Origin: a virus | Virus record (IMG/VR): IMGVR_UViG_3300034684_000299 | Span: 32,001 to 96,000 of that record | Reading direction: 5' to 3' (one strand) | DNA: 64,000 nt | Shown here: piece by piece, positions 30,111 through 33,318 of the stretch | Position numbering within the stretch: position 1 is the first letter of the stretch | How the letters are laid out: each line of letters opens with the position of its first letter | Translations under genes and position numbers: made by a program | The notes under the pieces: model-generated | Seen by the model: the letters and a program-made list of their open reading frames with translations, nothing else | Database searches by the model: none | Told to the model about the DNA's origin: nothing

Positions 30111-30324
30111 GCTTGAATTATTGGAACTTGCTAAAGTGCTTGATGAGGAATATTTGAATAATAAGTTTCAAGAAAGAGAAAATGTTGGAAAGTTTTTTCA
30201 TTCAAGAGAATTATTGGAAGAAATTGAGAAAGATATAGTTAAAGCACAGGAATTACATAAATTAATTGATGAATTAATAGAATATTTTGAAATAGAACCT
30301 TATATAGAGAAAAAAATCATATAA
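30100..30324 (+). CDS. Hypothetical protein (start moved from 30094)
   Basis: SD AAGGAGGT 8 nt before ATG 30100. Confidence 0.6.
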   Translation: MFTKLELLELAKVLDEEYLNNKFQERENVGKFFHSRELLEEIEKDIVKAQELHKLIDELIEYFEIEPYIEKKII

Positions 30325-30359
30325 TTACCCGCCACGCTAACATACGAACCTCCTCCTAT

Positions 30360-30383
30360 CCCGCCTTCACGGGCGGGTTTTTT
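30360..30383 (+). terminator. Intrinsic terminator of the replication operon
   Basis: cccgcc-ttcacg-ggcggg followed by TTTTTT. Confidence 0.8.
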
Positions 30384-30385
30384 CC

Positions 30386-30421
30386 AAAAAAAAAACGGGA
30401 GATTATCTCTCCCCTTTTTTT
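30386..30421 (-). terminator. Intrinsic terminator of the virion/lysis operon
   Basis: Minus strand gggaga/tctccc stem followed by a T10 run. Confidence 0.75.
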
Positions 30422-30697
30422 TTACATCTTAATTTCAAATCCAGCAAATATTTCTGCTTTTTTCTCTTCAAAAGGTTTTCTTACTCCACCACCAACACTT
30501 AAATTATCGTTCTTATCTAGCGGGACAAACAACCCAGCACCAATAGATTTGTTTGTCAATATTGCATCTGCATTTATCCTAAATCCACCTTCTTTGCCAG
30601 GGTCCAAGGTATACGCTGTCCAAGATACCCCTTCTTCTACCCCGCCTTTTGAATCTAGGACTTTGGTTTGCCGAATTGTTTGTCCAGTATAAAAACC
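30422..30697 (-). CDS. Beta-strand-rich reading frame, probably a -1 frameshift extension of the holin
   Basis: Open from just before G GTT TTT (30697-30691) to TAA 30424-30422; the internal TTG 30607 lacks a properly spaced SD. Confidence 0.5.
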   Translation of the reverse strand, partial: GFYTGQTIRQTKVLDSKGGVEEGVSWTAYTLDPGKEGGFRINADAILTNKSIGAGLFVPLDKNDNLSVGGGVRKPFEEKKAEIFAGFEIKM

Positions 30698-30990
30698 GCT
30701 GCTTCAATCGCCGCATTAAGTAATGTAGCATCAGTTTCTCCTACCGTTATTCCATGATTTTTTAAAATATCTGTCGCCATAGCCATCGCTTTTTCTTTCT
30801 TCTGCTCGCTTGTTAATTGTTCAGTTTCGCCTATTTGTTCTACCGCCAATACTACGTCTTGTGCTACTGTTTTTACAATATCTGATAAATCCATGAGCTT
30901 CTTTTTTTTGTCATTTGGAATCTTTGTACCAAGATATACTGCTGCTATTGCAATTAAAAATACTACTATATACATCACTATCTCACCCAT
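30655..30990 (-). CDS. Holin (LL-H-like)
   Basis: Single N-terminal TM helix, then AVEQ...KKEKA...AIEAAV. Confidence 0.7.
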   Translation of the reverse strand: MGEIVMYIVVFLIAIAAVYLGTKIPNDKKKKLMDLSDIVKTVAQDVVLAVEQIGETEQLTSEQKKEKAMAMATDILKNHGITVGETDATLLNAAIEAAVFILDKQFGKPKS

Positions 30991-30993
30991 TTT

Positions 30994-31479
30994 TTATTCC
31001 TCCTCTTTCAGTAATTTTATTTTTTCAAACCTTGATTCTTCTTCAAAAAAATCTTTTTCTAACATCATTTCTTCTTCAGTTTCTTCTTTAATTTCTTCTT
31101 TAGATTCTTCAGATTCTTCTTCTTTAACTTCTTCTAACTCTGTTACTGGTTTTTCTTTTTTGGATTCAGAATCTTTAGAATTTGTTTTCTCTTCAACTTT
31201 TTTCTCATAATATTCTAAAAATATTACTATTCCTACATTTGATGTGAATATTTTTTTATCTATAATTATATATTTATCGCCATCATTACTATGATTCATG
31301 ATATTTTCATATGTTTCTTTTTGTCTAGTATCAGAAATTATAAATTCATCACATTTGTAAATATAATTAGAATAAAAATCATTTGTGATATCATCAAAAT
31401 CATTTACTATCCGTGACATGGCAACTGCGGCTGGATCTTTTTCCATTTTAGACTGTTCCTTTTTTTTTACTGTATCCAT
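30994..31479 (-). CDS. Hypothetical protein with Glu-rich C-terminus
   Basis: ORF track; SD AAGGAGG. Confidence 0.65.
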   Translation of the reverse strand: MDTVKKKEQSKMEKDPAAVAMSRIVNDFDDITNDFYSNYIYKCDEFIISDTRQKETYENIMNHSNDGDKYIIIDKKIFTSNVGIVIFLEYYEKKVEEKTNSKDSESKKEKPVTELEEVKEEESEESKEEIKEETEEEMMLEKDFFEEESRFEKIKLLKEEE

Positions 31480-31491
31480 TTTTACTCCTCC

Positions 31492-33318
31492 TTACATTGG
31501 GCTTGCTTCAGTATTTGGTGGTTTTACTTCATTCATCTTTCTTCTGTTTACCTGTCCACTAGCATTTGACTCCACCGATTGGTTCTCTGGTTCTTGTGGT
31601 GTCAAATTCAAAAGCTTAGATAAAATTGGATCTTTCAACAAGGTATTTTGAAGTACTAGGGCTGTATAATTGTTGGTAATTGATTTAAGCAAATCCTCTG
31701 GTATTTTATCAAATTGCCCTTTCATTATATAGTTTGCTATTTCATACAATTCAACGTCTTCTACATTAGGTTTTTCTCCACCTTGTTGTATAATTTTCTG
31801 CATTTGTACTTCACCTATAACTTGACGTAATTGTTGATAATATTGTGTCTCTATTTGCAATTTAGCCTTTGCTTCAGCTTCTTTCACCAAGTTTTCAGTT
31901 TCATGATTATAATCAAATCCAAATTCGTTAAGTAGTGTATTGTCAGATATTTTTCCCATAGAATTCATGTTCAATAACAAATCTTTTCTTATTGTATCGT
32001 CTGCCATCTTAAAATCTCTTAACTTGATTTTTATTTTTGGTAGATCTGTAAGTTTACTTATTTTTTCTGTCAAGAAATTAAAAATCTTATTCAAGCTTTC
32101 TCTATAATTTATAAAATGGTTTTCTAACATTCTCAAAGAAACACTACTTCCTGACCAAGATAACCCTCCAAACATGAATTCTCTGGGTACACCTAATCCT
32201 GCTATAATTTCATTTATAACTGAATTAATCTCTTGAAACACCATCAATGCTTTCCCTTCCCCACCTATTTTACCTTCTATTACTGGCATAGGAAAAGTTT
32301 GAATAGCATTAGGATTTTTATCCCATTGAGTAAGTGCTTGTTTCATTTGAGTTTTCCATTTTCCTAAATTTAACATTCCAGTGATTCCAGCAGGACCTTG
32401 CGTACCTATAACTACTTCTGTAGGAGGAGCTATATATCTTTTCATCATAATATGATCTTCCGCAATCGCAGTTTGAGCTCTTCTCAACATATTTAAATAA
32501 AATACTTGATTCAATATAGGTTGCATAGGAGGTAATCCCCACCCTGGATACTTTAAAGATACACTAGGATATTTTGTATGTAATACATTTTTTGTTGTTA
32601 GTTTTAATTCACTGTAATTTTGAATAATAGCATCTAACATCCATTTAGGAGTATGTTTCAAAAAGTCTATTTCTCTTTTGATACTTTCTTTATCGCTCTT
32701 TTCTATTTTATAATAATATACTCTTTCGTCTGTAAAAGTGTTATATGCTATACGAATATTTATTGGATTCCAAAAAATCATTTTAAATCCGCTTATATCC
32801 TTTATAGCTTGTTGATGTATCTCAGCCGGAACCTTTCTATTATATTTTTCTGATATTATCCATAACTGTTGATCCCTTATTTCCCAGTTTGGAACTTCAC
32901 GATTGTTCCCTTTTTGTTTAATGTATTTCAAATTCAATATATCATTGTTATCATCTTTATTCAAAAATATGTTTCTGAAAGGTGGTAAAATTGTAGTAAA
33001 AACATTCCCATATACATTATAATATAAACCATATTCTATTAGCTTTTCTTTGACACCCATTTCTTCAAATATTTCTTTATACTTCTCTTTTACCCTTTCA
33101 TCTTTTGTTTCAAATTGTAATTCAGTGATTGGATATTCAGACATCTTGTATACTATAGCTGATATTATATGATTAGTCATATAATAATATTGCGACATCT
33201 TCAATAACTCAGAGATGTCGTCAGGTACGTAAAAATTTAAAGGATCAAATATTTTTCTATATCTGTCTCTTAAATAATTATAATTATAAGTTAATGGAAT
33301 ACTGTTGATTGCTGGCAT
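31492..33318 (-). CDS. Portal protein
   Basis: ISAIVYKMSEYP, YNVYGNVF, WGLPPM, IAGLGVPREF, consistent with the portal stem/clip pattern; 608 aa. Confidence 0.75.
   Translation of the reverse strand: MPAINSIPLTYNYNYLRDRYRKIFDPLNFYVPDDISELLKMSQYYYMTNHIISAIVYKMSEYPITELQFETKDERVKEKYKEIFEEMGVKEKLIEYGLYYNVYGNVFTTILPPFRNIFLNKDDNNDILNLKYIKQKGNNREVPNWEIRDQQLWIISEKYNRKVPAEIHQQAIKDISGFKMIFWNPINIRIAYNTFTDERVYYYKIEKSDKESIKREIDFLKHTPKWMLDAIIQNYSELKLTTKNVLHTKYPSVSLKYPGWGLPPMQPILNQVFYLNMLRRAQTAIAEDHIMMKRYIAPPTEVVIGTQGPAGITGMLNLGKWKTQMKQALTQWDKNPNAIQTFPMPVIEGKIGGEGKALMVFQEINSVINEIIAGLGVPREFMFGGLSWSGSSVSLRMLENHFINYRESLNKIFNFLTEKISKLTDLPKIKIKLRDFKMADDTIRKDLLLNMNSMGKISDNTLLNEFGFDYNHETENLVKEAEAKAKLQIETQYYQQLRQVIGEVQMQKIIQQGGEKPNVEDVELYEIANYIMKGQFDKIPEDLLKSITNNYTALVLQNTLLKDPILSKLLNLTPQEPENQSVESNASGQVNRRKMNEVKPPNTEASPM

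Follow-up and report, generated by a model that had tools for sequence, protein, structure and literature searches.

The DNA analysed here (hereafter the window) is a 64,000-nucleotide stretch covering bases 32001-96000 of the 185,437-bp uncultured virus record IMGVR_UViG_3300034684_000299; the record is classed as 'linear' in IMG/VR, with a CheckV completeness of 91%, and the virus genome has a GC content of 30.6%. A late operon on the minus strand closes with three genes, for a portal-like protein, an acidic 161-aa protein and a 111-aa holin. The holin ORF stands at the very end of this structural operon (upstream genes at 30994-33318), an order that is kept in relatives, and its neighbours are the two genes just named and a convergent RusA gene, with no endolysin adjoining. 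Beyond it, two back-to-back hairpin terminators (30360-30413) lie between the convergent late (minus) and replication/RusA (plus) operons. The features of the locus are the following:

31492-33318, minus strand: portal-like gene.
30994-31479, minus strand: gene for the acidic 161-aa protein.
30999-31005, minus strand: Shine-Dalgarno sequence GAGGAGG of the holin gene, 8 nt before the ATG, read directly.
30655-30990, minus strand: zero-frame holin ORF of the LL-H holin family, 111 aa, from ATG at 30990 to TAG at 30657-30655.
30928-30981, minus strand: single predicted N-terminal transmembrane helix (codons 4-21), then TKIPNDKKKK; from the sequence and from model helix 2-21 (AlphaFold2).
30691-30697, minus strand: candidate slip site G_GTT_TTT (codons 98-100, GCG GTT TTT), invariant in all lineages.
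30655-30691, minus strand: dual-coding overlap, with the holin tail ILDKQFGKPKS in frame 0 and the first 12-13 extension codons in frame -1.
30655-30687, minus strand: weak stem (30687-30682 pairing with 30661-30655) that begins 3 nt past the slip site, an unconvincing candidate stimulator.
30422-30691, minus strand: -1 frame extension of 89 codons plus TAA (30424-30422), without a start codon of its own; predicted six-stranded small beta-barrel.
30386-30413, minus strand: intrinsic terminator, a 6-bp stem (hairpin 30413-30397) and a T run, 8 nt past the stop of the -1 ORF.

By profile comparison, the zero-frame product is a member of the LL-H holin family, with a predicted hole-forming role. 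It scores 46.9 bits against Pfam PF09682 (cut-off 24.9) and 39.5 bits against NCBIfam TIGR01673 (cut-off 34.75), where residues 4-105 align with positions 4-107 of 108, and it also matches PHROG holin families. The traits of LL-H holins are present: a length of about 100 residues, one N-terminal hydrophobic helix and a highly charged C-terminal part. Among 50,697 phage records, the only matches to the holin were in Marinitoga camini viruses 1 and 2 (35% identity over 93% of the query). Since the zero-frame product can be aligned from end to end both to the family models and to the holins of the Marinitoga viruses, we regard it as a complete, untruncated holin, and the -1 frame extension as an add-on. 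A low-confidence model of the holin (AlphaFold2, pLDDT 62) contains helices at residues 2-21, 26-57, 61-78 and 85-101. The position of this last helix would place the slip site at its end, such that a frameshift there would swap the 11-residue tail for the predicted barrel.

The Marinitoga viruses also provide a reference point for the layout of the locus. In Marinitoga camini virus 2 (KP836356.2; L030:2983-4153, also L031), the holin gene belongs to a small cassette: the next gene, which encodes a 97-aa membrane protein, shares 4 nt with it, and a third specifies a 193-aa protein that has no match in Pfam and is a possible lysin. Neither a barrel nor a slip site was found at this holin locus, hence the extension appears to be a lineage-specific addition. 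In the genome studied here, the sole lysin candidate found lies 43 kb away from the holin. This candidate is a 185-aa SLT lytic transglycosylase (record positions 105690-106247, L029:1354-1911, about 9.7 kb beyond the end of the window) with a hydrophobic N-terminal signal or signal-anchor, and a 145-aa exported protein follows it; a search of the genome for Amidase_2, Amidase_3, GH25 and phage lysozyme domains returned none. As the holin matches are confined to Marinitoga viruses and the phage sequence recurs in oil-field and subsurface metagenomes, the host is likely a Thermotogota bacterium with an outer toga, and the premise of a diderm host, made in a preliminary description of this DNA, is plausible. 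No prophage copies were present in the 185,579 species genomes scanned; the DnaC-like and SLT proteins match only proteins of Firmicutes or Acinetobacter phages and are uninformative on the host.

The preliminary description had proposed that the holin gene continues into the -1 frame at a slippery heptamer, and its reading of the layout proved accurate in every coordinate. G_GTT_TTT lies at 30697-30691, in holin codons 98-100. The -1 frame opens two codons ahead of the heptamer: a TGA at 30706-30704 is followed by AGC AGC GGT TTT, and the frame then stays open to TAA 30424-30422, giving 89 codons and a predicted junction of ...AAVF|YTGQ.... For the -1 ORF, neither a start codon nor a ribosome-binding site is conserved; the lack of an independent, well-spaced ribosome-binding site had been pointed out in the preliminary description. 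The sole canonical start within the window's first 43 extension codons is TTG 30607, which lacks a Shine-Dalgarno sequence. Translation from this TTG only, the counter-case named alongside the original proposal, finds no support, for the codon is TTT in the L002 lineage and CTT in the L003 lineage.

The open -1 frame is not a product of chance: when the window's 37 long genes are read in the -1 frame, stops occupy 11.3% of the 17,081 codon positions, and an open run of 89 codons starts at none of them. The other two frames of the extension stretch contain 4-11 stops. Gene callers report only fragments of 32, 36 or 45 aa within the extension, and among 1.84 billion representative proteins searched with a profile there was neither a stand-alone full-length extension nor one fused in frame. 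Two further sequence motifs were considered. A_AAG at 30664-30661 was rejected as a shift site, being missing in the L003 lineage, and the overlapping ORFs at 38.4-40.2 kb show no second use of the slip motif; the downstream ORF there has its own Shine-Dalgarno sequence and ATG.

Related loci were gathered from IMG/VR, from JGI metagenomes, from look-ups of two holin clusters drawn from 5.8 billion proteins and from four further sequencing runs belonging to three oil-field studies. About 18 independent contigs (JGI, NCBI GCA_029972165.1 and Logan) have five T's at the slip site and an identical frame layout, and each of the four further runs likewise has exactly five. Over 1.4 kb, 13-14 substitutions separate these runs from the window, and indels occur only at 30386 and 30415, outside the ORFs; the two positions fall in the terminator T run and in an A run, which vary in length from strain to strain. 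The concern that a homopolymer indel might have split one continuous ORF is thereby settled: no assembly has an indel at the slip site, and an assembly error at the T run is excluded. The phage is also present (window 30200-31600) in two oligo-dT RNA-seq libraries from an oil field, X9 and X13, in contigs of 40-93 kb; such lengths suggest DNA carry-over or very broad transcription, and we take them as no evidence of expression or of a run of six U's.

The related loci fall into four lineages: the window type, L026-L028, L002 with its copies, and L003-L006 with their copies. Holin identity to the window is 95% for L026-L028 and 67% for each of the other two; the extension is 73% identical in the L002 lineage and 53% identical in the L003-L006 lineage. 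All four lineages have the invariant CGGTTTTT, a zero-frame stop 11 codons past the slip site and a -1 frame that stays open for 88-89 codons. A hairpin with a T run is found 3' of the -1 ORF in L002 and L003 as well, with a different sequence. The terminator is thus placed after the -1 ORF and not after the holin stop, a position that we count in favour of recoding.

Conservation of both the slip site and the downstream frame, which the preliminary description had asked of relatives, is accompanied by purifying selection on the protein encoded in the -1 frame. Along the entire extension, pN/pS ranges from 0.0 to 0.4, and outside the overlap dN/dS is 0.10-0.25. Divergence is dominated by third-position changes (39-45 of 64-87 differences), and the comparison between the two closest lineages, the window and L026, yields 12 synonymous changes against 1 non-synonymous change. 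The first canonical start common to all lineages comes at codon 53-54 of the -1 ORF, and the codons upstream of it, 14-53, have a pN/pS of 0-0.42.

The heptamer itself offers a second line of evidence. Three lineages have GCG ahead of GTT and the fourth has TCG, an Ala-to-Ser change in which the G is kept, and both codons are rare: GCG makes up 7.8% of Ala codons and TCG 5.0% of Ser codons in the virus genome. From codon usage, the chance that NNG GTT TTT is kept in the two further deep lineages is approximately 0.025 x 0.016 = 4e-4, an estimate that assumes synonymous sites near saturation (pS 0.6-0.8). An exactly kept G is what two-tRNA slippage predicts, because position 1 of the heptamer preserves the first-position pair of the P-site tRNA-Val. 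Judged from these alignments, the comparative signature of recoding is present.

We consider a programmed -1 frameshift, yielding a 111-aa holin and a 189-aa isoform of holin plus barrel, to be the best reading of the locus and a moderately probable one, since the layout is conserved, the -1 ORF has neither start codon nor ribosome-binding site, the extension evolves under purifying selection and the G of the heptamer is kept by way of rare codons. We envision that, at G_GUU_UUU, a fraction of ribosomes would slip back by one base as they reach the end of the last predicted holin helix. The tRNA-Phe would re-pair perfectly on UUU, while the tRNA-Val would retain its first-position pair on GGU. 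The shifted ribosomes would then exchange the last 11 residues of the holin for the 89-residue barrel, resulting in a 189-aa isoform with the same membrane anchor and helical part. That this fusion is actually made, and in what ratio to the holin, is something we infer from the sequence.

The heptamer is not a canonical X_XXY_YYZ site, as P-site re-pairing involves a mismatch at the middle position. It does contain an A-site re-pairing motif, the U_UU.U tetramer inside G_GU.U_UU.U. For proneness to shift in E. coli this tetramer ranks in the top three, and IS1 and IS3 elements make use of it (PMC4066793); on their own, however, such tetramers are barely shifty in E. coli and need a stimulator (PMC4066793). 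As the preliminary description had stated, the complete heptamer G_GUU_UUU is a proven -1 site in cardioviruses, where it is stimulated by a viral protein bound downstream (PMC4524249). At the holin slip site, we found no convincing stimulatory RNA structure or upstream Shine-Dalgarno-like element. Single-sequence folds of the 100 nt past the slip site are not more stable than shuffles (z = +1.7, -0.4 and +0.5), and the weak stem listed above, detected with RNAalifold, has six pairs kept in most lineages and one compensatory change, with a consensus energy of only -2.6 kcal/mol. Because the tetramers shift so rarely when unstimulated and no convincing stimulator is apparent here, the efficiency of frameshifting may be very low.

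Other ways of translating the -1 ORF have to be weighed against ribosomal slippage. In the first, the barrel would be a separate protein of about 84 aa that starts at the non-canonical ATT 30676-30674 (codon 6 of the -1 ORF), either directly or through re-initiation by ribosomes terminating at the holin stop, 19 nt downstream of the ATT. Termination-reinitiation near overlapping stops is known in phages, and the ATT is found in all lineages. Its conservation is uninformative, however, as the holin frame (K-Q/R-F) fixes these bases; no Shine-Dalgarno-like sequence precedes it, while the genes of this genome carry strong GGAGG sites; and a separate start leaves the rare G-ending codon kept before GTT TTT unexplained. 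We regard this alternative as improbable. In the second, RNA polymerase would stutter on the T5 run and add one U to some transcripts, which would produce the identical junction and hence the same 189-aa protein. Polymerase slippage usually needs a run of about 8-9 residues and T5 is well short of this; moreover, selection on the preceding G suits tRNA re-pairing rather than polymerase slippage, and the RNA-library contigs, which drop rare variants, contain no length variant, leaving polymerase stuttering a distinctly improbable source of the fusion. Finally, although the homopolymer is located at the frame change, we give almost no credence to an artefact or to decay, i.e., a T-run assembly error or a dead, untranslated remnant, given the identical T5 in all independent contigs and runs, the conserved holin tail in frame 0 and the selection on the -1 ORF.

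To describe the domain that a programmed frameshift would append, we modelled the extension with AlphaFold2 from a three-lineage alignment (pLDDT 85.5, pTM 0.74). The prediction is a confident one, a small closed barrel whose six strands span residues 6-12, 18-29, 39-46, 49-57, 64-73 and 80-87. A Foldseek search of the PDB with the barrel gave nothing at E <= 0.001. In an exhaustive structural search, the best match was 9xzt_A 'BBn6' (90 residues, Z 9.4, rmsd 2.5 over 80 residues), which from its name we take to be a small six-stranded barrel. Next came LpqH (Z 6.2), a lectin, Cap15 (7n34_A; Z 5.5, rmsd 3.2 over 76 residues) and the barrel of factor-H-binding protein, and outer-membrane barrels appeared only at Z 4-5. 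The top row in the BFVD library of viral structures was an S-2TMbeta (Cap15-type) effector (E 0.018, prob 0.99, TMq 0.49).

Sequence comparisons add no named family to this picture. The extension matches none in Pfam, PHROGs, NCBIfam or a PDB sequence profile search, and the ESM Atlas returned only unnamed viral clusters together with weak attacin or gloverin rows, below the useful feature count. Weak matches from the search of representative proteins (P0005-P0010), to DUF285 and Ig-like repeat proteins over 17-36 residues, were taken as spurious. At the level of sequence, the predicted barrel is therefore without relatives outside this phage clade. Charged residues make up 24 of its 89 positions (27%), no lineage has a Cys in it, and every strand is hydrophobic on one face and polar or glycine-lined on the other. 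Since two-faced strands in a six-stranded barrel without a lumen imply a hydrophobic core and a polar outside, the model points to a soluble-type domain.

The charges around the single transmembrane helix suggest where this domain would reside. In all lineages there is no K or R before the helix (M-G/S/A-E), while the 15 residues after it contain 4-5 (Lys), and the Marinitoga virus homologue has the same charge pattern around its helix. Under the positive-inside rule, which is the sole basis for the assignment, the protein would adopt an N-out/C-in topology, and thus the barrel, along with the whole C-terminal part, is predicted to be cytoplasmic.

What might a holin with a cytoplasmic barrel do? 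In our view the long form, with its anchor and helical part in common with the short holin, would co-assemble with it and tune the timing of membrane hole formation, acting as a regulatory isoform, antiholin-like or of another kind, whose ratio would be fixed and probably low. Functionally, the nearest precedent is lambda S107/S105, a pair mentioned in PMC3091744, and for this reason an antiholin-like role in lysis timing is favoured; such a role is more likely than that of a spanin. In lambda, holin and antiholin arise from a dual start, differ by two N-terminal residues and set lysis timing through their ratio. The present locus resembles lambda in that one holin gene would specify two isoforms with a common membrane part, with timing by ratio being possible. 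It differs in that the second isoform would gain an 89-residue folded C-terminal domain by recoding, and its inhibitory action is putative.

The long form may alternatively be a co-holin, a Cap15-like sensor or a dock for another lysis protein. The sensor reading draws on the Cap15/S-2TMbeta effectors of CBASS (PDB 7n34), membrane-disrupting proteins which likewise combine N-terminal membrane helices with a small cytoplasmic barrel, the latter being predicted here. A cytoplasmic barrel working in the manner of Cap15 would let the long holin couple lysis to a small-molecule or protein signal, e.g., a host defence nucleotide. Unlike Cap15, the holin has one helix rather than two and no sequence similarity to it (no Pfam match at E up to 1), and no CBASS genes were seen near the holin. 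With a Z below 8, the match to Cap15 may reflect a common arrangement only, and we consider the sensor reading unlikely. If true, it would make this a recoded, signal-gated holin.

The preliminary description had instead seen in the extension an outer-membrane-like beta domain and, in the fusion, a single-chain spanin, whose inner-membrane anchor and helical stalk would carry the beta domain to the outer layer or toga. Some observations agree with it: a Thermotogota bacterium, the possible host, would possess an outer toga; a non-systematic look turned up no spanin-like gene; G-x-E-I-K-(F/Y/M) closes the extension; and outer-membrane barrel folds are matched weakly (Z 4-5). The fold and the topology tell against both parts of the claim. 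The model is a closed, soluble-type small barrel of six strands (not at least eight), and its 90-residue best match scores well above the outer-membrane ones. There is no signal peptide, and the last residue is not always aromatic, being M, M, Y and F in the four lineages and hence Met in two. The content of charged residues and the strand faces, with the hydrophobic core that they imply, also argue against insertion in an outer membrane.

A spanin carries a lipoprotein signal for the outer membrane, and its body is periplasmic. The fusion would share with T1 gp11 and Rz/Rz1 the lysis context and the proposal of one chain reaching from the inner membrane outward. It would differ from them in lacking a lipobox, there being no Cys in the extension of any lineage or in the holin, and its predicted topology is the opposite one, as the charge bias places the C-terminus in the cytoplasm. 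A single-chain spanin is thus quite improbable.

A natural experiment on the long isoform is offered by the contig L007/L013, in which a mobile-element end cuts the extension after about codon 37 and leaves the holin ORF whole. We regard this contig as a natural knock-out of the long isoform; with the holin intact, it implies that the long form may be dispensable. The interrupting end (L007:4412-4505, equal to L013:5104-5197; IMGVR_UViG_3300010327_000306) is 100% identical to bases 103005-103100 of the window's own genome, which has five copies of it.

Programmed -1 frameshifting of the holin, as we read the locus, has its nearest formal parallel in the phage tail assembly chaperones (lambda G/GT at G_GGA_AAG and P2 E/E+E' at T_TTT_TTG), where the same pair of short and C-terminally extended -1 products is made. 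As in those genes, the -1 ORF lacks a start, the slip site has been conserved through the divergence of the proteins, and a fixed ratio is proposed. Tail-chaperone frameshifts often take place with no downstream RNA structure, P2 E/E+E' being an example (PMC3091744). Unlike the tail chaperones, the present case concerns the gene of a lysis membrane protein and a non-canonical heptamer. Cardiovirus 2B* shares the identical heptamer and the direction of the shift. That event occurs on the eukaryotic ribosome and needs the viral protein 2A on a 3' stem-loop (PMC4524249), whereas no such stimulator was found at the holin slip site.

A link between frame errors and lysis is itself not new, as Kastelein et al. 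are said to have reported in 1982 that translation of the MS2 lysis gene L depends on frameshifting in the overlapping coat gene. There, as proposed here, rare frame errors would meter a lysis function; the difference is that the MS2 frameshift delivers ribosomes to a separate start and generates no fusion protein. No published case of a frameshift inside a holin or antiholin gene emerged from a full-text literature search, which gave only genome papers with the frameshift in the tail chaperone. On the best reading of the locus, the new element is thus the application of a known mechanism, programmed -1 frameshifting, to a holin.

Lysis timing is set by the ratio of holin to antiholin, and the known sources of such pairs are dual starts and separate genes. 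If our reading is true, a folded domain added by frameshifting would be a third way to make a holin/antiholin pair. Phage genes with programmed -1 frameshifting comprise those for tail chaperones, capsid decoration proteins and DNA polymerase subunits, a short list that a lysis gene would then join. Such isoforms are invisible in current annotation, as gene callers return only fragments of 32-45 aa. Taken together, the case provides a first handle on lysis in the large phages of probable Thermotogota hosts.
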